NCBI GenBank assembly: GCA_022614965.1
Contig: JAKEHO010000043.1
Span: 10,950-74,949, forward strand
From: Gammaproteobacteria bacterium
GTDB taxonomy: Bacteria; Pseudomonadota; Gammaproteobacteria; JAKEHO01
Length of the DNA stretch: 64,000 nt
Reading direction: 5' to 3'
The notes under the pieces: model-generated
What the model was told of the DNA's origin: nothing
What the model saw: the letters and a program-made list of their open reading frames with translations, nothing else
Database searches by the model: none
In this document: positions 2,540 through 33,015 of the stretch, piece after piece
Position numbering within the stretch: position 1 is the first letter of the stretch
How the letters are laid out: each line of letters starts with the position of its first letter
Program-made: the position numbers and the translations under genes

Positions 2540-3574
2540 CTAATCGGGAATTGAACTGCCAGACTTGCGTCCGAGCGTCCGACTACTCTGTTGTAAAAAT
2601 GGTTGAGGCAGCGAGCCGCGCTCACTGTGCCACATTCCTGTCGAGCTGTAGCGCTCCCCGGTGTCCGAGAGCAAGGTCACGATCGTCCGGTATTTTCCGG
2701 TTGCGGCGATGTGCAACGCACCGTAGACATACGCCCCTGAAGACGGCCCAACAAAGAGTCCGTGCTTGGTCAGGCGCTTGCATACAGCCGTTGCCTGCTC
2801 AATGGTGATAGCGATCCGTTCGTCGATTAGCGATTCATCCAGGATTGCAGGAACGATGTCATCAGGCTCGCCAAGGGGTTTAAGGCCCTCTATCCCTGGA
2901 AAGCGCTCCGGGATCACCGCGGCAATGTGAATGTCAGGGTTCACCTCACGCAGGCGTCTCCCCACCCCCGTGATGGTGCCGCCCGTACCGACACCCGCGA
3001 CGAAGGCGTCTGGCAATAAACCGGTTTGAGCTCGCAACTGTGTGAGGATCTCCCGACCCGTGTCCTCGTAGTGGGCCCGCCAGTTATCCTCATTACTGTA
3101 CTGGTCGCAGTACCAGTAGCGCTCAGGAAATTCTTCGGCAAGCCGATGAGCCTCTAACAGGGCAAAATCGTAGCCCTTGAGAGGATCCGTCAAGACCAAC
3201 TCCGCGCCATGCGCCGCAATGCGATCGAGCCGTTCTTTGCTCGCATTGCCGGGTACCACGATGGTTACCGGTATCCCAAGTGCGGCGCCAAGCATTGCAT
3301 AAGAAATGCCTGCGTTTCCCGAAGATGAATCGAGCAATCGACGACCGCCTTCGAGCCTTCCTTCCTGAAGCGCCTGAGTTAGCATGCGCGCAACCGGCCG
3401 ATCCTTGATGGAACCCCCGGGATTTAAGGCTTCAAGCTTTGCAAACAGCCGGGCGGCAGGCGCCGCTTCCGTTACTAGATCCAATTCGAGCAGAGGGGTA
3501 TTGCCGATGCAGGCGATCAGGCCTCCGGCTTCGATGCTTGTTTCAGGCTTTGCTTGGCTCGCGTGAGGTTGCAT
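2540..3574 (-). CDS. cysM: PLP-dependent cysteine synthase family protein (CysM-like)
   Basis: IGNTPL, KLEALNPGGSIKDR (PLP lysine), SSSGNAG, GVGTGGT, VGPSSGA. Start moved to ATG 3574 to avoid overlap with the upstream gene. Confidence 0.85.
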   Translation of the reverse strand: MQPHASQAKPETSIEAGGLIACIGNTPLLELDLVTEAAPAARLFAKLEALNPGGSIKDRPVARMLTQALQEGRLEGGRRLLDSSSGNAGISYAMLGAALGIPVTIVVPGNASKERLDRIAAHGAELVLTDPLKGYDFALLEAHRLAEEFPERYWYCDQYSNEDNWRAHYEDTGREILTQLRAQTGLLPDAFVAGVGTGGTITGVGRRLREVNPDIHIAAVIPERFPGIEGLKPLGEPDDIVPAILDESLIDERIAITIEQATAVCKRLTKHGLFVGPSSGAYVYGALHIAATGKYRTIVTLLSDTGERYSSTGMWHSERGSLPQPFLQQSSRTLGRKSGSSIPD

Positions 3575-3609
3575 GGGGCGGTTCCCTCTATGGCGGCATC
3601 GTGTTCTGT

Positions 3610-5064
3610 TCAGGCATTCGAGGCCGCACAAAATGCCTCGTAATCCACATAGCCGGGGAACTCCGCATGATCGCCGCAGTAGGCGCAGCTCGGGTTGCGA
3701 GGGAGTTTAAGCTCTGAGAAGCGGGCCTTGAGCGCGTCGTAATAGAGCAGTGTGCCGATTAGTGGCTCGCCGACTTCCAATATCAGCTTGATGGTTTCAA
3801 CCGCTTGGAGCACACCGATGACCCCCGGCAGGACGCCCAAGACGCCCGCCTCAGCGCAGGAGGGGCCCAGTTCCGGTGGAGGTGGCTCTGGATACACACA
3901 TCGGTAGCAGGGCCCATGGTGCTTCGGATAGGCTGGCCAGAAGACAGAGACCTGACCCTCAAAGCGGAACACCGCGCCATGGACATTAGGGATGCCAAGG
4001 CGCACGCAGGCATCATTGACCAGATAGCGGGTCGCAAAATTGTCTGACCCGTCCACCACCACGTCGTAACCACGGAAGATCCTCTCGACGTTGTTAGAAT
4101 CCAACCTAACCTCGTGCTCGTTGACCTTGACACGCGGGTTCAGCGCCTCAAGGGTTGCCCGTGCGGAAGCGACCTTAGGGGTACCCACCCTATCATTGGT
4201 ATGCAGAATTTGCCGTTGCAGGTTACTGAGATCGACGAGATCATGATCGACAATTCCCAATGTGCCAACGCCTGCCGCGGCCAGATAAAACGCCGCGGGC
4301 GAGCCGAGTCCGCCGGCCCCAACCAACAACACCTTGGAGTTCAATAGCTTGAATTGGCCCGCTTCACCCACTTCGGGCATTAAGAGGTGCCGGCTATAGC
4401 GCTCGCGGGCATCATGGTCGAGTATTTGTGGGACCTCGAAGGGCAACCCTTCGTTCTTCCAGCGGTTGAAACCACCGCTAACCGACCGCACGTCCGTATA
4501 TCCAAGACGCTTAAGGTCCTCGGCTGCGAACAAGGAACGCATACCGCTGTTGCAGAATACGAGTACGGTCCGGTCGAGATCGGGTGCCACATCTTCGATC
4601 TTCAATTCCAGATAGCTCCGTCCGAGTGGATGAGCGCCAACAGGGCGACCTTCGGCAATCTCCTCGCGTTCACGTACGTCAATGAGCACAGCCCCACCGC
4701 GCCGTAGCGCCTCGGCCTCGCGAGGGGTTACTTGAGGGATCCCCGCTCTGAGTTCTACCAGCCTGCGGTCTTTGGCCCGCACTCCGACACCACCGGCGAC
4801 AGCCGGCACGATCGACAACACGTCACCGTCGGACAGGGCAGTATCTAACCCATTAAGCGAGTTCACATTCTCATTTCCAAGATAAATATTGACGAAATTC
4901 CGCAACTGGCCTTTTGGCGTCATCACCCGCTCGACGATGCCGCCATGGGCCCTACCAAGGGCCTTCAGCGCCTCGCCCACGGTTGTTCCTGCAACGACAA
5001 CCTCGTCGGCGCCCTCAGCAAAGGTCCGCAATGGCATCGGGATCCGGATGGTTACGTCGGCCAT
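3610..5064 (-). CDS. MoaD/CysO-like ubiquitin-like sulfur carrier fused to rhodanese and MoeB/ThiF (E1-like) adenylyltransferase
   Basis: Residues 1-92 are beta-grasp-like and end in IVPAVAGG. Rhodanese follows (LIDVRE...VFCNSGMRS), then E1 (RYSRHLLMPEVG, VGAGGLGS, SNLQRQ, PCYRC, PSCAEAGVLG, CAYCG, DYEAFC). No stop codon after GG. Confidence 0.93.
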   Translation of the reverse strand: MADVTIRIPMPLRTFAEGADEVVVAGTTVGEALKALGRAHGGIVERVMTPKGQLRNFVNIYLGNENVNSLNGLDTALSDGDVLSIVPAVAGGVGVRAKDRRLVELRAGIPQVTPREAEALRRGGAVLIDVREREEIAEGRPVGAHPLGRSYLELKIEDVAPDLDRTVLVFCNSGMRSLFAAEDLKRLGYTDVRSVSGGFNRWKNEGLPFEVPQILDHDARERYSRHLLMPEVGEAGQFKLLNSKVLLVGAGGLGSPAAFYLAAAGVGTLGIVDHDLVDLSNLQRQILHTNDRVGTPKVASARATLEALNPRVKVNEHEVRLDSNNVERIFRGYDVVVDGSDNFATRYLVNDACVRLGIPNVHGAVFRFEGQVSVFWPAYPKHHGPCYRCVYPEPPPPELGPSCAEAGVLGVLPGVIGVLQAVETIKLILEVGEPLIGTLLYYDALKARFSELKLPRNPSCAYCGDHAEFPGYVDYEAFCAASNA

Positions 5065-5480
5065 GTCTCAATACCCTCCTCAACAAACTGTCGCTTTCCA
5101 TTGAGCCGCCACGAGCGTACATCCGCCACCCCCTCGCGGGTCACTGACAGGATCACATAGGACCAGCCCTCCCAGGCCAACGTTCGGTCTGTTTCCGAAG
5201 GCTGGGCAGGATGCTCTGGGTGGGAATGCCAGATCCCGACGATTTCAAGCCCCCGGCGTTTCGCTTCCTGATCGGCGCTGAGCATATCGTCGGGGGCCAG
5301 CTCATATCGGTCATAGGCTCTCTCCGTGTTTAGATTGCGCGCGGTCATGACACGGCATACGTTGACAGCATCCTTGGTCACCTTCCCAGTCATAAGCCCA
5401 CAAACCTCATACGGGTATCCCGCCATCACAATGGATTTGAGGCTGCCGAGTACCTCCTTCGGTATGCGCAGGCCCGCCAT
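5052..5480 (-). CDS. JAB/JAMM (M67) metalloprotease, Mec-like
   Basis: YPYEVCGL plus WHSHPEHPAQPSETD fits the JAMM E...HxH-x7-S-x2-D motif. Overlaps the start of the Ubl fusion gene. Confidence 0.92.
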   Translation of the reverse strand: MAGLRIPKEVLGSLKSIVMAGYPYEVCGLMTGKVTKDAVNVCRVMTARNLNTERAYDRYELAPDDMLSADQEAKRRGLEIVGIWHSHPEHPAQPSETDRTLAWEGWSYVILSVTREGVADVRSWRLNGKRQFVEEGIETWPT

Positions 5481-5686
5481 GACTCAATACTATACTGATT
5501 GCCTAGGTTATTGTGAACGTTCGCCAGCTCAAAACGACAGTGGCCCCGCGGTGTCAATGTGTTAATGGAGTGCAAGCAACCATCAAAAGTTGCCTGTATT
5601 ATGGTGGACGGTGCGCGGCCCGCAGCCACGGCATTGGCGCACAAGCGCGAAGCAACACAAACCCGTACTACTTAACGCTTCTGACA

Positions 5687-26072: not shown

Positions 26073-26148
26073 TCCCCGGTAGCTCAGCTGGTAGAGCGGG
26101 TGGCTGTTAACCACTAGGTCGGCGGTTCGAGTCCGTCCCGGGGAGCCA
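26073..26148 (+). tRNA. tRNA-Asn(GTT)
   Basis: TCCCCGGTAGCTCAGCTGGTAGAGCG-GGTGG-CTGTTAA-CCACT-AGGTCGGCGGTTCGAGTCCGTC-CCGGGGA-GCCA. Confidence 0.97.
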
Positions 26149-26323
26149 TACTCCCTTGTCTTGGGCCAAGGCGAACATCGCCGATACAGTAACCACCGAC
26201 CACCCTCGTCACTCAGCACTCTTTCCCATCGCCAGCCGTGCGAGTCCGGCATGAGACATCTCGTGTCAGGGAATGATGAAGGTATTCTACGGTGAGTTGT
26301 TATAATTAAGCAGTGGGAGAGCG

Positions 26324-26383
26324 ACCTAACCATTGAACTGACGGGCGCGCGTCAGCGCGTCCCGGTCGAGTGATTTGTTAGAG
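26324..26383 (-). repeat. attC site 3 (60 bp)
   Basis: CTCTAAC-AAATCACTCGACCGGGAC-GCGCTGACGCGC-GCCCGTCAGTTCAATG-GTTAGGT. R''/R' boxes and an imperfect palindrome with bulged bases. Confidence 0.85.
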
Positions 26384-26390
26384 CGCATTC

Positions 26391-26666
26391 TCACTTTGCC
26401 TTTACATCTTCTAGCTTCACACCGCGGCCAGCCCGCAAACTGGCGCGCGCAGCGTCAACCCTCTCCAAAAAACGTGGGTCGTTCTCAAGACGATAGTCGA
26501 ACCAGTCGTCCTCGGACTCAAACCCAATCAATACTCCCGCCGGCTTGCCGTGGCGGGTAATGAGGATCTCCTGCTTCTCTGCCTCGCGGAGAAATCTAGA
26601 CAGGTCGTCCTTTACTTCCGATAACGAAACCTTCTTTACTCGGGACTTCCGAACTGCGCCAGCCAT
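26391..26666 (-). CDS. Phd/YefM family antitoxin
   Basis: VSLSEVKDDLSRFLREAEKQEILITRHGKPAGVLI is a Phd-type N-terminus. Confidence 0.88.
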   Translation of the reverse strand: MAGAVRKSRVKKVSLSEVKDDLSRFLREAEKQEILITRHGKPAGVLIGFESEDDWFDYRLENDPRFLERVDAARASLRAGRGVKLEDVKAK

Positions 26667-26929
26667 GATTCTGCCTCCGATTGTGCTACTATCGCCAACA
26701 CCTCTACGGTCGAGCCAGAAACGTCGTAGAAGATACGAAGTTCTTCAACTCGAAGCCGAAACTGCGGCTTCGAAACACCGCGCAATCGTTTGATTCTGCT
26801 ACGGCTTACTTTCGTCGGCTCATACCTCAGATGCGTTTCAAGTGCCTCGCGGACTACGGACCTGAGATTTGCGTTAAGCCTCCCGAGGTCCTCAACTGCC
26901 TCCGCAGCAAGAATGATCCCAAAACGCAT
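26636..26929 (-). CDS. RelE/ParE family toxin
   Basis: IILAAEAVEDLGRL, IKRLRGVSKPQFRLRVEELRIFYDV. Overlaps the antitoxin start. Confidence 0.85.
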   Translation of the reverse strand: MRFGIILAAEAVEDLGRLNANLRSVVREALETHLRYEPTKVSRSRIKRLRGVSKPQFRLRVEELRIFYDVSGSTVEVLAIVAQSEAESWLAQFGSPE

Positions 26930-26966
26930 TCTGGCTATATTATAGCCAGATTTATTGAGATGAGAA
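26930..26966 (-). promoter_or_regulatory. TA cassette promoter with palindromic operator over the -10 box
   Basis: Minus strand TTCTCA-16 nt-TATAAT. TATAAT sits inside a perfect 10 bp inverted repeat, TCTGGCTATA-A-TATAGCCAGA (26930-26950), which directly precedes the toxin ATG. Confidence 0.7.
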
Positions 26967-26974
26967 AGTACGCG

Positions 26975-27040
26975 CTCTAACGACCTGCCGATAAGCTGCG
27001 GGCACCGCAGGCGACCGTCAGCTTCATCGGCGTGTTAGGC
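26975..27040 (-). repeat. attC site 2 (66 bp)
   Basis: GCCTAAC-ACGCCGATGAAGCTGAC-GGTCGCCTGCGGTGCCC-GCAGCTTATCGGCAGGTC-GTTAGAG. The cld stop TAA is in R''; L''/L' pair with extrahelical bases. Confidence 0.92.
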
Positions 27041-27595
27041 CGCCACATCGCGTACGAGGCGGATATCCACCTCACGGACTACGTACTTCCATTCCTCCGA
27101 CACACGCAAACTGACTACGAGTTCCTCGAAGGCCACCGAGTGTTCTGGTGCGTACTCGAACCAGGTGAGGAAGTCGAAGGGCTCACCGAGATCGCGGCTG
27201 TGGTGCAGACGACGCGCGACGGCGGGCAGGTATCGCAATCCAGTCTTGATGTGTTCCGACCGCGTCTCAAAGATCTCCCGCCTCTCGTCTTGAGTGAGCT
27301 CCCACCACGCGTCCGACTTTCGGATCGGGATAAGCGCCGCATAGACAGCCTCCGGCCGACCAGGCGCGGGCTGTTTCGCCACGAGTAGCTGCCGCTCGGC
27401 GCGCGTTACGTACCGTTCGTTGCTGGTAACGCCTCGGAGCAGCCAGAGCGCGCCCTGCGGAGCCGAGGCGACAAGCGAGGTGACCACTTCGGCACGCGGA
27501 GCTTCAGGCAGAGGCTCACCGATCACCGCGTCCGTTCGCATGATCCGCCATTCTCCGGTGAGTCCACCGACAAACGTAAACATTCGTCCGGTCAA
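27035..27595 (-). CDS. cld: Chlorite dismutase, short (clade 2/dimeric-like)
   Basis: 186 aa. WLLRGVTSNERY, ALIPIRKSDAWWELTQDERREIF, HIKTGLRYLPAVARRL, DLGEPFDFLTWFEY, EEWKYVVREVDIRL match, from memory, the short Nitrobacter-type Cld. Candidate proximal His115 and distal Arg128 are present. Confidence 0.88.
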   Translation of the reverse strand: MTGRMFTFVGGLTGEWRIMRTDAVIGEPLPEAPRAEVVTSLVASAPQGALWLLRGVTSNERYVTRAERQLLVAKQPAPGRPEAVYAALIPIRKSDAWWELTQDERREIFETRSEHIKTGLRYLPAVARRLHHSRDLGEPFDFLTWFEYAPEHSVAFEELVVSLRVSEEWKYVVREVDIRLVRDVAA

Positions 27596-27656
27596 TTCCT
27601 GCCTCCATCAAAACGGAGTCTGCAACCTGCTCTACGCAAGTCCGCGATTGGTGGCG

Positions 27657-27728
27657 GCCTAACGTCTTGCATAATCGGCGGCCTAAAGCATAACTTTAAG
27701 CGGTCCGTGTTGATGCGATTGTTAGCAC
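27657..27728 (-). repeat. attC site 1 (72 bp)
   Basis: TGCTAAC-AAATC-GCATCAACACGGAC-CGCTTAAAGTTATGCTTTAGGC-CGCCGATTATGC-AAGAC-GTTAGGC. Confidence 0.88.
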
Positions 27729-28556
27729 GCATTCCAGTGCCTCAGTTCGTTCTAATGGTACGAAAATGTGGTCTTTAAGTGTCGGATCAGTGAATCCGCC
27801 TATGTTGTCAATTCGTGTGATGCCCGCATAGGTGTCGTTGCTTGTCTTGCATATTCGATAGGGCATATATTTCAAGCTCCTCAAGGCGCTCAGCAACTTT
27901 TCATTGCGAATAGCTCGATGTTCGTCCTCGCTTCTCGTGGGCAATATTTCCATAATGATAATGGGTTGATCCCGATCAATTAGCGGTGACATTGTTTCAA
28001 TAACCTCGAGTTCTGCGCCCTCAACATCTATTTTAATGATGGCTGCCTTGTCTTTCGGTAAGCAACCGCAAATTGCTTCATAACGAAACACAGGGACAAA
28101 TTTTGTCATCCTCCCCTGCGGTATGGATCTTAAGTCTTTAATTATCGTTGATCCCCCATCAGTATCGCTTGAACCGGAAAGTTCAACTATCCCATCCATA
28201 TTGGATAAACCTACCGGAACTATCATTGCTTGATTCCAGAGATTCGAACTGATTAGTCTCTGAAGGTAAAACAGGCAGGATGGGTTTGGTTCAAAACCAA
28301 CGTACTGTCGGCTTGCATCTAGGGTGCTTACTTTGGCAAGCGTTTGCCCTAGATTCGCTCCAACGTCATAAAATACGCCATCCGCAAATTGGAACAACTC
28401 TCCCAATAGTTCGGACATCCACTTTTCCCCGCTTACGCCAACCTTTACTCCGTTAATGATGGGGACATATATCTTTTTGTTATTCAATGTCCTTGTGGTG
28501 CTGAGGTTGACTATGGTCGAAAGCCTCTTGCCAAGGTGTTTTAGTTGTTTCTGCAT
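27696..28556 (-). CDS. FkbM family methyltransferase (cassette gene)
   Basis: YDVGANLG, VGFEPNP, IKIDVEGAELEVI. Visibly AT-rich; the reading frame runs into attC1. Confidence 0.88.
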   Translation of the reverse strand: MQKQLKHLGKRLSTIVNLSTTRTLNNKKIYVPIINGVKVGVSGEKWMSELLGELFQFADGVFYDVGANLGQTLAKVSTLDASRQYVGFEPNPSCLFYLQRLISSNLWNQAMIVPVGLSNMDGIVELSGSSDTDGGSTIIKDLRSIPQGRMTKFVPVFRYEAICGCLPKDKAAIIKIDVEGAELEVIETMSPLIDRDQPIIIMEILPTRSEDEHRAIRNEKLLSALRSLKYMPYRICKTSNDTYAGITRIDNIGGFTDPTLKDHIFVPLERTEALECVLTIASTRTA

Positions 28557-28595
28557 ATTCTATGGTCGTCCTCGTAAAGTGCTGCGTAATATGCG

Positions 28596-28614
28596 TGCTA
28601 ACTTTAAATTCGAT
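28596..28614 (-). other. Candidate attI simple site
   Basis: Minus strand ATCGAAT-TTAAA-GTTAGCA: degenerate L box, 5 bp A/T spacer and R box at the start of the first cassette. No R'' partner upstream. Confidence 0.45.
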
Positions 28615-28659
28615 TTCAATTCTGCCGTATAAGCCGGCAGACTACGCCGCATAATCCAA

Positions 28660-28782
28660 GGGGTCAATTTTCAAGGTCTTGATTTATGCCACGCCTCAAA
28701 GAGGATCACGGCGCTGAAATAAATCTGGTGATTTCTAATCCGAAAGCGAACCAATCTGTGATAATTGTCAAGACTTGACCCC
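28660..28782. mobile_element. 123 bp MITE-like element with GGGGTCAA/TTGACCCC terminal inverted repeats
   Basis: Ends GGGGTCAATTTTCAAGGTCTTG and CAAGACTTGACCCC share a motif with termini at 30832-30851 and 32738-32753. Contains a 30-codon ORF MPRLKEDH... (28686-28778). Confidence 0.55.
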
Positions 28783-28808
28783 CTGCGCCCATTGGATGCT
28801 AAGTGTGG

Positions 28809-29228
28809 TTAAAAACGATCATTCCCAACTATGCCTAAATTGTTGATTTTTGTCTTTCTCAAAATCTTCAACAGCAGATTTCTGCAAAATCTAAGAAATG
28901 GATAAATAATTTTCGAAAGCATCCTGGAGCGGAATATCCAGTAATTGATGCGATTGAAAACTCCGGAACGACTGCCATTAAGGGCCAGTGCATGAATGGC
29001 GTCTGCGCCGTAATAAAGCGCACCACCCATCTTCAGTACCATTCCCTGGTCTATATCGAGGCCTGCTGCTGTGATTTCATTCATGATTTCACTTGATTCC
29101 CTGGCATCAACTAGCTTGAGTTTCCCGACGGAACCCCTAATACGAACCATCCGGCAATAATTATCACAGGCAGGACACTGCTTGTCGTATACAAGAAGTA
29201 TGTCATTATCTTTTATCGCCCTGTGCAC
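28809..29228 (-). CDS. DCC1-like thiol-disulfide oxidoreductase (DUF393), cassette-like
   Basis: LVYDKQCPAC (DxxCxxC), LDIDQGMVL, LYYGADAI. Preceded by GTTAGAA (29242-29236); its stop TAA is inside TTTTAAC. Confidence 0.85.
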   Translation of the reverse strand: MHRAIKDNDILLVYDKQCPACDNYCRMVRIRGSVGKLKLVDARESSEIMNEITAAGLDIDQGMVLKMGGALYYGADAIHALALNGSRSGVFNRINYWIFRSRMLSKIIYPFLRFCRNLLLKILRKTKINNLGIVGNDRF

Positions 29229-29434
29229 AATTGCCTTCTAACGGTTGAATCAGTGGCGGTGTTCCGCCCTGGCGCACCGGCGTAAGATCATAGGCCGCGC
29301 TGGCATGATTCAAAGCATGGGGCCACAATGCTTGAAGTCCGGGATCCACATTTCATAGTGAGATTACGTTACTATTATGCAAACCGTGACTCAGAAGATA
29401 AAAAATATCAAAAACTCCGACTCCCTGTTTCCGG

Positions 29435-30733
29435 TTGTCCGTGTCTGACGCCACCCTTGCCCGCAGCCTCGGTCTCGGCGCTCTGGTGTTCTACGGCATC
29501 GGAGATATCCTCGGGGCCGGCATATACGCCCTGGTCGGCAAGGTGGCGGGGGCCGCGGGCGATGGCGCCTGGCTTGCTTTCCTCTTTGCCGGATCCCTCG
29601 CGCTGGTTACGGGCCTGAGTTATGCGGAGCTCTCTGCAAGAATTCCCCACAGTGCTGGCGCCTGTGCGTATTGTGCAAACGCCTTCCCCCATCCTTTTTT
29701 TCCCTTTTTGACAGGCGCACTAGTTCTCGTTAGTGGAGTGACATCAACGGCAACGGTGGCGCTCGCCTTTCAGGGTTATCTCGAAGTGTTCATGGCGCTG
29801 CCTGTAATGTTCACGGCCATTTTTCTCATCCTCGCCATCAACACGCTCAACTTTGCGGGCATCCGCCAGTCCGCAGCAACCAACAACCTGTTCACCATCA
29901 TCGAGATGAGCGGCTTGGTGCTGTTTGTGGTGATGTGCATGCGCTATGTGGCATCGACGCATACGCCGTCAGACCTGATTGAAAAACTGGCGCCCACCGC
30001 GGATGTCGCCGCAGTGGTTGCGGGCGTGACGATCGCGTTTTATGCATTCATCGGATTTGAGGACTTGGTCAACCTCGCGGAAGAGGCCAGAGATCCGGTG
30101 CGCGATCTGCCGCGGGCAATCCTCAGCGCAATCGCGATCACCAGTCTCCTCTATCTGCTGGTGATCTTCACCGTCCAGTGGACCATGACGCCCGCGGAGG
30201 CATCCGCCTCACAACGGCCGCTGCTCGACGCGCTCGAACGCGCGGGATTGCCGATCCCGGCATGGGGGTTTGCCTTGATCGCCGTGATCGCAATCGCTAA
30301 CACCGGCCTTGCCAACAGCATCATGGCGTCGCGCCTGCTATATGGCATGGCGACACAGGGACTGCTTCCGAAGCGGCTGGCGCAGGTGCACGCGCGCCGC
30401 CTTACCCCCTGGCTCAGCATTCTGGTGACGGCGCTGCTATCAATACTGCTGGTCATCACTGGCGGTGTCACCGTGTTGGCGCAGACGACGGGCTTTCTGC
30501 TCGTGACCGTGTTCCTCATCGTGCATATCAGCCTCATCCGCATACGCCGCCGCGATGGAGAACAGGTCGGCCGATTCAACGCACCGGCTTTCAACCCGTA
30601 TCTTGGAGTTCTGCTCTGTGTCCCGTTGCTGACACAATTTCCCCGCGAGGTCTACGAGCGGATCACACTAATCGTTGCTGGCGTGGGTATTTTGTTTGCC
30701 GTGATGCAGTGGAGTCAGAGACGATCTTTGTAA
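29435..30733 (+). CDS. APC family amino acid permease
   Basis: LARSLGL, GIGDILGAGIYALVG, SYAELSARIPHSAG, FYAFIGFEDLVNLAEEARDP, SRLLYGMA. About 12 hydrophobic segments. Confidence 0.92.
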   Translation: MSVSDATLARSLGLGALVFYGIGDILGAGIYALVGKVAGAAGDGAWLAFLFAGSLALVTGLSYAELSARIPHSAGACAYCANAFPHPFFPFLTGALVLVSGVTSTATVALAFQGYLEVFMALPVMFTAIFLILAINTLNFAGIRQSAATNNLFTIIEMSGLVLFVVMCMRYVASTHTPSDLIEKLAPTADVAAVVAGVTIAFYAFIGFEDLVNLAEEARDPVRDLPRAILSAIAITSLLYLLVIFTVQWTMTPAEASASQRPLLDALERAGLPIPAWGFALIAVIAIANTGLANSIMASRLLYGMATQGLLPKRLAQVHARRLTPWLSILVTALLSILLVITGGVTVLAQTTGFLLVTVFLIVHISLIRIRRRDGEQVGRFNAPAFNPYLGVLLCVPLLTQFPREVYERITLIVAGVGILFAVMQWSQRRSL

Positions 30734-30831
30734 AGCGTCTTTTCAATACACTTGCGCAGGTTTCAAGTGCTCTGACCACTTGAATTTCTGATGAATTACA
30801 ATCGGTCGAATATCAGTAAACGATAAATGTA

Positions 30832-30851
30832 TTATTGCAAGGCCTGACCCC
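30832..30851. repeat. GGGGTCAGGCCTTG element terminus
   Basis: Plus strand TTGCAAGGCCTGACCCC, same motif family as 28762-28782 and 32738-32753. Confidence 0.5.
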
Positions 30852-31042
30852 GATCCTCAGACCTCGCACTTGTTAGGCATAATTAGTCGAGCCTCACTCA
30901 TTTTATTCGTGCAGCTCCGCCCTTCATCGTTGGCAACAGCTCAATCGACGAAGATATCCTGCAGATTGTCCCTATCGCGTAAACCACGTGATGTTAATTG
31001 AGCATGGGGCTCGCTTCAACGGATTACCATGCTCAAAGTAGT

Positions 31043-32467
31043 TTACTGCGCAGCCAGCTTCCGCACGATTTCGTACATCACCCGGGTGCCGAACTTCACG
31101 TTCTCCACCGAGAGCCGCTCATCGTTGCCGTGGAGGAGGGAGGCTTCCTTGTCCGTCAGCTTGAAGGGCATGAAGCCGTAGCAGGGGATCCCCTTCTCCC
31201 GGAAGTAATGGCAGTCGGTGAACCCAACCAAGAGCGGTGTTGTTACTTTGACCCCAGGATCGTGGCTGTTCGCAACCTCTTGGAGAATCTTAAAGAACTC
31301 GGAATTGGTGGGGGACGCGCTCGGGGGAAAGGAGAGCACGGGTTCGATCTTGATCGACTCGTCCCCGATAACCTTCTGCAGCTCATCGAGGAAGCGCTGT
31401 GGATCCTCGCTTGGAAGGAGCCTCACATCAAGCTGGGCGGTGGCCTGAGGCGGGATAACGTTGACCTTGTTCGAGCCCTCCAGCATTGTGATCGAGATGG
31501 TGTTCCGAACTGCAGCGTTATCCCAGCGGTCTTCGCTGAACTCCAAGGCGAAGGCACGGTTCTGGAGGGAGGCCCTCAGATCCTTCAATCGTTGCCGCCG
31601 CTCGGGGGAGGGCTCGAGGTCGGCGGTGTCCGCGTAGAACTTCTGGACCACGGGCTCTACCTTCAGTGGCGTTTGGTAACTGACGATCCGGTGCAGCGCC
31701 TCGATCAGCTTGACCACCGCGGAGTCGGGCCGGGGCATCGAGCCATGGCCAGGGGTGCCCGTGGCCGTCAGCTTCAACCAGAGCGGGGCCTTCTGAAATA
31801 TTTCCACATCGTAGTGCAGGACCTTACCATCGTCGCCCACACTGATGAAGCTGAACTCATTCAAAACGGTGCCAGCGTCCTTCAGGAGGTCAAAGTGCTC
31901 CTGGACCATGAACCGCGCGCCCATGGCACCTCCCGCCTCCTCGTCGGCCACCCCCAGGAAAATGACATCTGCCTTCAGGGGGATCCCCTGGCGCTTCAGG
32001 GCCAGCATAGCCATCAGCTCCACGATCCCCATGCCCTTCATGTCCAGGGCACCGCGCCCCCACACGTAGCCATCCTTAACCACACCGGCGAAGGGGTCCA
32101 CCGACCAATACCGTCTGTCTGCCGGGACGACGTCCATGTGATTCATGAGGACGACGGCCTTCTTCGATCCGTCCCCTTTAAGGCGTGCATAGATATTTCC
32201 TCGTCCCGGGGTCGATTCCAGAATGCGCGCCTCGATCCCTTCTCGATCGAAGATGGCCTTGAAGAACTCAGCCGCCTTGATCTCATTTCCCGGCGGATTG
32301 GTGGTATCGATCCGAAGGTATTCACTGAGGAGAGAGACGGCTTCCTGCTCCAGAGCCTCCACGCCGGCGGCACTTTTCTCGCCTGGAACCTCCGCGGCCT
32401 TCGCCACAGCGGCCAAGGCAAACACCATGAGCCCGACTATGGCCAGCACAAGCTTGCGATTTTTCAC
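31043..32467 (-). CDS. Secreted M20/M25/M40 family metallo-hydrolase
   Basis: N-terminal signal peptide, LRIDTTNPPGNE, MNHMDVVPA, GRGALDMKG, VADEEAGG, GTPGHGS, GFTDCH, LHGNDER. GTG start after GGAGGGAG. Confidence 0.92.
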   Translation of the reverse strand: MKNRKLVLAIVGLMVFALAAVAKAAEVPGEKSAAGVEALEQEAVSLLSEYLRIDTTNPPGNEIKAAEFFKAIFDREGIEARILESTPGRGNIYARLKGDGSKKAVVLMNHMDVVPADRRYWSVDPFAGVVKDGYVWGRGALDMKGMGIVELMAMLALKRQGIPLKADVIFLGVADEEAGGAMGARFMVQEHFDLLKDAGTVLNEFSFISVGDDGKVLHYDVEIFQKAPLWLKLTATGTPGHGSMPRPDSAVVKLIEALHRIVSYQTPLKVEPVVQKFYADTADLEPSPERRQRLKDLRASLQNRAFALEFSEDRWDNAAVRNTISITMLEGSNKVNVIPPQATAQLDVRLLPSEDPQRFLDELQKVIGDESIKIEPVLSFPPSASPTNSEFFKILQEVANSHDPGVKVTTPLLVGFTDCHYFREKGIPCYGFMPFKLTDKEASLLHGNDERLSVENVKFGTRVMYEIVRKLAAQ

Positions 32468-32565
32468 AGCCTCTCCCTCCTCACAATGGATTCATTGACG
32501 TTTGCTCGAAATTGAGAGGCGAAAACGTGTCAGGAACCATTTTGCAGCTACCGTCCGAGGGGGAT

Positions 32566-32753
32566 TGAAGACCCTTTTCCGCGAAACTGCATTCAAGGAC
32601 AAGGCCGCGCGCGATAAAGCGATGCGCGAGGCCCACCGCGCACACGGTTACACGCTCTCAGAGATCGGTCGAGCACTCGACCTACACTACGCCACGATCA
32701 GCAAAGTGGTTAATCAGCGCGGGGCATAAACTTAGTTTTCAAGACCTGACTCT
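32566..32753 (+). pseudogene. C-terminal HTH remnant of a Y1/REP-associated tyrosine transposase, followed by its terminus
   Basis: LKTLF...RDKAMREAHRAHGYTLSEIGRALDLHYATISKVV resembles the C-terminal HTH of long RAYT-type transposases. TTCAAGACCTGACTCT follows 8 nt after the stop. No HUH domain upstream. Confidence 0.6.
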
Positions 32754-33015
32754 ATGTCTGCTAAGGGGACGTTCCACTCCCAACATGTTTTTGTTGCAAC
32801 ATAGGTACAGATCATGGTGGTTTGCAGATCCCGAACAGTTATTTTTATGCTTATTCGATCATTAAATGCACTATATAACGAGGCAGACAGTTCGACACGG
32901 TGCTCTTTCGATGGCGCCCAACAATTCACAGATTTGAATCACCCACTTCAAGGCCCGTTTCTTGGTTTCCGCCCCTGTTGAATGCAGCATGATTTGAATG
33001 GCAACCCCGGCATCA

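Follow-up and report, generated by a model that had tools for sequence, protein, structure and literature searches.

Background

Chlorite dismutases (Cld) of the short clade 2, represented by PaCld, NwCld and the Cyanothece enzyme CCld, are dimeric proteins of about 185 amino acids (aa) with a single ferredoxin-like haem domain and no signal peptide, and KpCld of Klebsiella pneumoniae MGH 78578 is listed as a further dimeric clade-2 enzyme (Celis et al. 2015, as cited in PMC9751292). The gene (cld) is known from several mobile contexts, namely perchlorate reduction genomic islands and chlorate-reduction composite transposons (Clark 2013; Melnyk & Coates 2015, PMC4623255), Tn3-like and IS26-cld-IS26 units on plasmids (PMC7728920, PMC7319535) and clc-type integrative and conjugative elements (ICEs; PMC11823659). 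Here, we investigated a cld gene in a 64,000-nt stretch of DNA from a gammaproteobacterial genome (GenBank assembly GCA_022614965.1, contig JAKEHO010000043.1, positions 10,950 to 74,949 of the forward strand), hereafter called the window. We consider it highly probable that this gene encodes a clade-2 Cld of the active type and is carried as one promoterless integron cassette in an integrase-less cluster (CALIN) of attC sites beside a tRNA-Asn gene.

The window shares with the known mobile contexts of cld the horizontal movement of the gene, often without a dedicated reductase, but those vehicles are transposons, islands and ICEs, whereas here the vehicle is an integron cassette that holds one gene and an attC site of its own. 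The perchlorate islands and chlorate composite transposons are defined by cld together with pcrAB(CD) or clrABDC and bounding insertion sequences (IS), a combination that is absent from the window, where we found no transposase in the array and no IS, pcr or clr linked to the cassette. In the open-access literature searched, none of PaCld, NwCld, CCld or KpCld is described as bounded by attC sites, the open-access papers and preprints contained no description of cld as an integron cassette, and integrons are not mentioned anywhere in a wide-ranging genomic comparison of Cld neighbourhoods (PMC9751292). Within the limits of that literature, our results suggest that integrons are a so far undescribed route of chlorite dismutase spread. 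The kind of element is itself well known: CALINs as described by Cury et al. 2016 (PMC4889954) resemble the window array in having at least two attC sites on the same strand, no integrase gene (intI) or intI pseudogene, a small size and non-resistance cargo. The window array differs from them in its heterogeneous attC sites (60, 66 and 71 nt) and cassette G+C contents (43-62%), in adjoining a tRNA gene and in its degenerate head.

Results

The cld open reading frame (ORF) lies on the minus strand at 27035..27595 and encodes 186 aa from a TTG start to a TAA stop (27037-27035). A Shine-Dalgarno (SD) motif, GGAGG, was read from the sequence at 27602..27606 on the same strand, 6 nt upstream of the TTG, and because of this spacing TTG 27595 is preferred as the start over the in-frame ATG at 27583. 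The stop codon falls within GCCTAAC (27040-27034), the R'' box of a 66-nt attC site (26975..27040, minus strand) that further comprises L'' GAT[G]AAGCTG, L' CAGCTTATC and R' GTTAGAG (26981-26975), and that folds into a hairpin of −33.1 kcal/mol with paired R boxes and one unpaired base at the canonical L'' position. At its 5' end the cassette is bounded by the G|TT point (27663|27662) of the upstream R' box GTTAGGC (27663-27657). Measured from the TT of that box to the G of its own R' box, it spans 682 bp (26981..27662, minus strand; 62.0% G+C), with a 61-nt leader that carries the SD motif and precedes the single Cld ORF. The first-pass annotation of this DNA, made from the sequence alone, had proposed that a 186-aa short Cld fills a complete cassette with its stop in R'', and this is borne out by the position of the TAA inside GCCTAAC as well as by the Pfam and PDB matches and the attC covariance model (R1) described below. 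Its interval for the unit, 27035-27662, runs correctly from the first cassette base to the ORF stop and falls short at the other end, where the attC site continues for 60 nt to 26975.

The boundaries of the cassette are set by comparison with a second context. A metagenomic contig (L011, GCA_964498075.1) encodes a Cld that is 88% identical to the window protein, and the two loci share ~90% nucleotide identity from 27663 to 26979 of the window with unrelated flanks on both sides. Identity opens at G|TTAGG of the upstream R' box (27663) and closes at GGTCG|TT in the cassette's own R' box (26979, inside GGTCGTT), and its confinement between two G|TT points is the signature of cassette exchange by attC recombination. 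The cld gene is a discrete integron gene cassette, and the idea of a mobile unit put forward in the first pass gains support from these boundaries and from a second cld lineage that resides in a complete integron (L018, see below).

Window attC sites were located by a heuristic hairpin and motif scan and, separately, by R1, a covariance model trained on 12 sites from other genomes and none from the window (nine from an Alicycliphilus chromosomal array beside a 468-bit integron integrase, IntI, and three from other cld loci). When R1 was run over the whole window with filters off and on both strands, its top three matches, which cluster within 1.4 kb of the minus strand, were 26324-26383 (42.9 bits, E 2.5e-8), the Cld attC at 26975-27040 (27.5 bits, E 1.7e-4) and 27657-27727 (13.6 bits, E 0.54). 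Read in the reverse orientation the window sites score ~10 bits (10.0 bits for the Cld attC on the plus strand), and in 722 kb of other loci every match of at least 27 bits lies in a cld-linked array. Each of the three window sites has its unpaired bases on the 5' (R''/L'') arm, as do the training sites. The upstream site (27657..27727, minus strand) is the 71-nt attC of an FkbM methyltransferase cassette, with R'' TGCTAAC and R' GTTAGGC, and the downstream site (26324..26383, minus strand) is the 60-nt attC of a toxin-antitoxin cassette, the last in the array, with R'' CTCTAAC and R' GTTAGGT, 175 bp from the tRNA-Asn gene. R1 misses or underscores attC sites with long central regions, giving 12.7 bits to an 81-nt site in L018 and not recovering a 105-nt site in L013 or the cupin site in L030, and the sites of these three loci were therefore judged by motifs, folding and homology boundaries. 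The window and L011 attC sites were compared for compensatory changes, but their hairpins fold in different registers and no claim of covariation is made.

The window protein matches Pfam PF06778 (Chlor_dismutase) at 44.2 bits (cut-off 25) and no model in an NCBIfam search. In a phmmer search of all PDB sequences it matches PaCld (9GTJ, E 2.2e-73), NwCld (3QPI, E 2.2e-62) and CCld (5K8Z, E 5.1e-59) from end to end, whereas the pentameric clade-1 enzymes reach only ~1e-11. The protein is 61.6% identical to PaCld and 57.9% identical to NwCld, and its residue numbering keeps the PaCld register up to residue 137, PaCld having a two-residue insert after Gly137 that is missing from the window protein. 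The residues reported as conserved or functional in PaCld are Arg61/Tyr62/Val63, Ile89, Lys93, Trp98, Arg105, Arg106, His115, Leu123, Arg128 and Glu170 (PMC12525007), and all were found in the window protein, with Glu168 in the place of PaCld Glu170. Among them are the proximal haem ligand His115 (in SEHI), its hydrogen-bond network of Glu168 and Lys93, and Arg105, a marker of clade 2. The distal catalytic Arg128 (in AVARRL) aligns with PaCld Arg128 and with Arg127 of NwCld and CCld. The first-pass placements of His115 and Arg128 are thus correct by alignment to the PDB sequences, and its prediction that an alignment with NwCld would show arginine and no other residue at the distal site also holds. 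Both residues, together with the other catalytic and haem-pocket positions, are unchanged across an alignment of 34 relatives, cassette-borne ones included.

An AlphaFold2 model of the protein (predicted local distance difference test, pLDDT, 90.2; predicted template-modelling score, pTM, 0.87) superposes on the dimeric Clds 9GTJ, 5K8Z and 3QPI with template-modelling (TM) scores of 0.92-0.96 and root-mean-square deviations of 1.0-1.4 Å, as against a TM score of only ~0.6 and 14-15% identity for coproheme decarboxylases (HemQ/ChdC). Like PaCld, NwCld and CCld, to which it is 58-62% identical, the window protein has a single ferredoxin-like haem domain of similar length, no signal peptide, His115 and Arg128, and the whole conserved pocket. 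Judged by sequence and model, it is a genuine short clade-2 (dimeric-type) Cld that has all the features known to be required to turn over chlorite and is predicted to be active.

The cassette is not confined to the window and L011. Relatives at 78-91% identity occupy at least six different neighbourhoods, and several close relatives retain GTTAGGC upstream and GCCTAAC at the stop. At L008, GTTAGGCCGCCAC lies upstream of cld and GCCTAAC at its stop, and at L013 cld has a 105-nt attC site (GCCTAAC...GTTAGCC), with an IntI that exceeds the cut-off encoded on a different contig of the same metagenome-assembled genome (MAG); the cassette ends of L111 and L012 are eroded. An attC site directly behind cld was also found at L047, which lies outside the training set and scores 35.6 bits with R1, and at L015, whose site is itself a training site of R1. 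In a maximum-likelihood tree the attC-linked cld genes form two separate clades, A (window, L011, L012, L008 and L013) and B (L015, L047, L019, L018 and a plasmid type). The L013 MAG (genome G008) is labelled Actinomycetota. Integrons are rare in this phylum, and the cassette in this bin may be either a binning artefact or a real exception.

Within clade B, one of the 80 best genomic relatives, L018, from a MAG of the Gammaproteobacteria, carries a complete integron (L018:820-6116). Its IntI (820-1734, 304 aa; TIGR02249 374 bits, cut-off 265) is divergent from the array, an IS110-family transposase gene (3060-4121, minus strand) is inserted among the cassettes, and cld (5001-5561) lies between attC sites at 4919-4981 (64.5 bits) and 5556-5636 (81 nt). 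The plasmid type is one cld that is identical across 19 genera (L023-L041). A query of cld and its attC alone matched 49 plasmids, and the match is at least 99% in 19 PLSDB plasmids, among them C. metallidurans pMOL30 and plasmids of Salmonella and E. coli; a larger count of 581 plasmids obtained with a 1.5-kb query of cld plus cupin gene was rejected, being due mostly to the non-cld part of the query. On an Alicycliphilus plasmid this cld (L030:4975-6148) is ~98% identical in nucleotides to L018:4982-5636 through the whole 81-nt attC site, and identity stops exactly at the R' box, which reads GTTAGCG in L018 and GTAGAAC in L030. The cupin gene behind the plasmid cld ends in an attC-like site of its own, TTCTAAC...GTTGAGC (L030:6079-6148). 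Since the L018 attC is retained and the cupin gene has its own attC-like site, the cld-cupin module resembles a fossil array of two cassettes, and by its sequence the plasmid-borne cld appears to derive from the L018 cassette lineage. The pMOL30-type gene resembles that of the window in encoding a short Cld (61% identity between the two proteins) and differs from it in belonging to clade B, in being embedded in plasmids and transposons, and in having an altered R' box (GTAGAAC) and a following cupin gene.

The host, an uncultured bacterium that the neighbours of its UvrB place in the Gammaproteobacteria, has a single cld in its genome (2.3 Mb, 87% complete). Its sole molybdopterin oxidoreductases, identified with NCBIfam, are the formate dehydrogenase alpha subunit (FdhA, 787 bits) and NuoG (641 bits), and Nar, Nap, Nas, Pcr and Clr are all missing from the 87% of the genome that is represented. 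The earlier observation that no (per)chlorate reductase lies nearby can therefore be extended to the whole assembly. The first pass had also offered side reactions of nitrate reductase as a source of chlorite; given the reductases recovered, such an internal source is unsupported for this host, subject to the incompleteness of the genome, and the chlorite would have to be external or to stem from oxidative chlorine chemistry. Barnum & Coates (PMC9751292) used the presence of Cld in 'non-(per)chlorate reducers' to argue that chlorite arises from oxidative chlorine chemistry, and a host without an enzyme for chlorate or perchlorate reduction fits their category.

No cld occurs in the only same-genus genome (G010) or in 38 of 39 class-level relatives. 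Synteny between the window and the corresponding G010 locus (L104) breaks at the tRNA-Asn gene and returns at 33014, in a gene for an NTP-transferase (NTP, nucleoside triphosphate). This patchy distribution among relatives, together with the variability of the locus within the genus, was counted as support for acquisition of the gene.

The array is flanked on one side by an amino-acid permease gene and on the other by the tRNA-Asn(GTT) gene (26073..26148, plus strand; ARAGORN), which forms the conserved flank of the variable region. All its genes are co-oriented on the minus strand: a DCC1-like thiol-disulfide oxidoreductase gene comes first (28809..29228; PF04134 43.2 bits), followed by the FkbM-family methyltransferase gene (27696..28556; PF05050 51.1 bits, TIGR01444 75.6 bits), by cld in third place, and by a ParE-like toxin gene (26636-26929; PF05016 23.7 bits) with a Phd/YefM antitoxin gene (26391-26666; PF02604 43.2 bits, TIGR01552), the last two together at 26391..26929. 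The G+C contents of the cassettes in this order, 43.4, 44.7, 62.0 and 52.6% compared with 54.3% for the genome, point to separate origins. With three attC sites within 1.4 kb on one strand, where at least two are called for, and no intI nearby, the array is a CALIN and not a complete integron by the definitions of Cury et al. 2016 (PMC4889954). A second assembly shows the identical arrangement.

Discussion

If the protein acts as its sequence and model predict, it would be a cytoplasmic, haem b-containing clade-2 Cld that converts ClO2− to Cl− and O2. The 61-nt leader with its SD motif, the ORF and the 66-nt attC site whose R'' box holds the stop would form one unit, probably delivered by IntI-mediated recombination at attC and open to renewed mobilisation by the integrase of an incoming integron. 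As the cassette has no recognisable promoter of its own, we propose that it would be transcribed by read-through from upstream; the enzyme, when made, would protect the cell from chlorite of outside or oxidative-chlorine origin and not from chlorite of host reductases.

Several observations weigh against this interpretation. The best TIGR02249 score in the 87%-complete genome is 86 bits, below the cut-off of 265, with no match on the contig of the window, and neither an intI pseudogene nor an attI site was found in the window or in that genome. No sigma-70-like promoter site was recognised in the cassette leader, and the head of the array has neither such a site nor an integron cassette promoter (Pc), both of which bear on expression. 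The attC site at 27657-27727 scores weakly with R1 and owes its status to where it lies, to the shape of its hairpin and to the boundary seen in the comparison with L011, and the unpaired L'' base of the Cld attC is a G on the coding strand where the training sites have a C. Lastly, the attachment-like region behind the DCC1-like gene (28596-28814) is disrupted by an inverted-repeat insert of ~125 nt, as seen in a fold of 28590-28820, and the site at the array head is degenerate, with an R'-like GTTAGAA (29236-29242) preceding the DCC1-like gene; together these features suggest decay.

Much of this could also be expected if the array were a silent fossil, that is, a decaying integrase-less remnant whose cld this host neither expresses nor can mobilise, leaving the gene with no present function. 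The missing IntI, the lack of a promoter-like site for cld or the array head, the broken first attC-like region with the degenerate head and a host without any enzyme that produces chlorite would all agree with such a state. We nevertheless regard it as rather unlikely, given an undamaged ORF that retains every functional residue and has a good SD motif, intact attC sites both of the Cld cassette and on either side of it, and the identical arrangement in the second assembly. Moreover, cassettes of CALINs may be mobilised by an integrase acting in trans (Cury et al. 2016, PMC4889954), and the co-oriented upstream cassettes could provide read-through transcription. The absence of an integrase, the tRNA-side location that is typical of genomic islands and the weak upstream site (E 0.54) might also be taken to mean that the hairpins are repetitive extragenic palindromic (REP) elements or terminators and that some other mechanism placed cld beside tRNA-Asn as an ordinary gene of an island. 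That would leave unexplained why a model trained on foreign sites selects exactly these three sites, and strand-specifically, why each has RYYYAAC...GTTRRRY termini and unpaired bases on its 5' arm, and why homology to L011 halts at G|TT crossover points on both sides; in addition, no tyrosine recombinase or other island integrase was found beside the tRNA-Asn gene, and we consider this explanation extremely improbable.

The other alternatives accept the cassette and concern what its product does. The family includes members that are not chlorite dismutases, such as HemQ/ChdC and DyP-like relatives, and the activity of the window enzyme is a prediction, so that a haem-binding, peroxidase-like or coproheme decarboxylase role without chlorite degradation is conceivable. 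It is, though, very unlikely for a protein that has the distal Arg128 and the proximal His115-Glu168-Lys93 network, is 58-62% identical to dimeric Clds characterised as enzymes, and matches the ChdC/HemQ fold with a TM score of merely ~0.6 at 14-15% identity. In diderm bacteria haem is made through protoporphyrin, a route for which ChdC is not required, and the host, a gammaproteobacterium, is expected to follow that route. Cld yields one O2 per chlorite, and in a host without reductases that generate chlorite internally the selected benefit might instead be the O2 itself, for oxygenases or respiration in low-oxygen groundwater. Against this stand the low concentrations of chlorite in the environment, the absence of any oxygenase linked to the cassette, and neighbouring cassettes that are functionally unrelated and not common to other cld loci, and we give such a benefit very little credence. 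Detoxification of chlorite by a cassette-borne clade-2 Cld remains the interpretation that we prefer.

A broader proposal, which we put forward tentatively and hold to be somewhat less probable than its opposite, is that cld is a recurrent and widely circulating integron cargo of at least two lineages, with integrons perhaps serving as the entry route for the pMOL30-type cld-cupin module, which would then be a fossil two-cassette array. A cld gene in the form of a clean cassette, found in several contexts and in one complete integron, adds an oxidant-defence enzyme to the cargo of integrons, and carriage in cassettes could explain why lineage-2 Cld is so patchily distributed. Should both the recurrence of the cassette and its entry into plasmids be true, chlorite tolerance would be part of the integron-borne adaptive gene pool, possibly under selection by chlorine-based oxidants, and a fossil cld-cupin array would now be travelling on plasmids of environmental and clinical Proteobacteria. 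The plasmid link is relevant to the question of whether mobile genes are under selection by chlorine-based oxidants.

Additional observations on the locus

The variable region of the window (26154-33014) contains, besides the cassette array, the amino-acid permease gene, a gene for an M20 peptidase and a small ORF resembling a helix-turn-helix protein. In its place, the same-genus genome G010 (L104) has a Rieske/VanA-type oxygenase gene and a DUF4070 fragment. None of the neighbouring genes of the window array, ParE/Phd included, has a homologue in any of the cld loci retrieved; the survey of Cld neighbourhoods lists toxin and antitoxin families of 97 and 91 aa near cld (PMC9751292). In the toxin-antitoxin cassette the gene for the ParE-like toxin precedes that for the Phd antitoxin and overlaps it by 31 nt. 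This cassette has a promoter-like site of its own, TTCTCA-16-TATAAT (26966-26939), which overlaps a perfect palindrome with 9-bp arms (26930-26950), a possible operator.

The region at 28596-28814 was also considered as a canonical attC site and was rejected, since it fails even with the insert ignored and R1 gives no match. The inserted element of ~125 nt (28660-28783) has the terminal inverted repeats GGGGTCAAGTCTTGA ... TCAAGACCTTGAAAATTGACCCC and may be a small mobile element that targets hairpins. A related sequence, GGGGTCAGGCCTTG (30846-30859), follows an orphan GCCTAAC at 30872-30878, and GTCAGGTCTTGAAAACT is found near 32750 (about 32740-32760).

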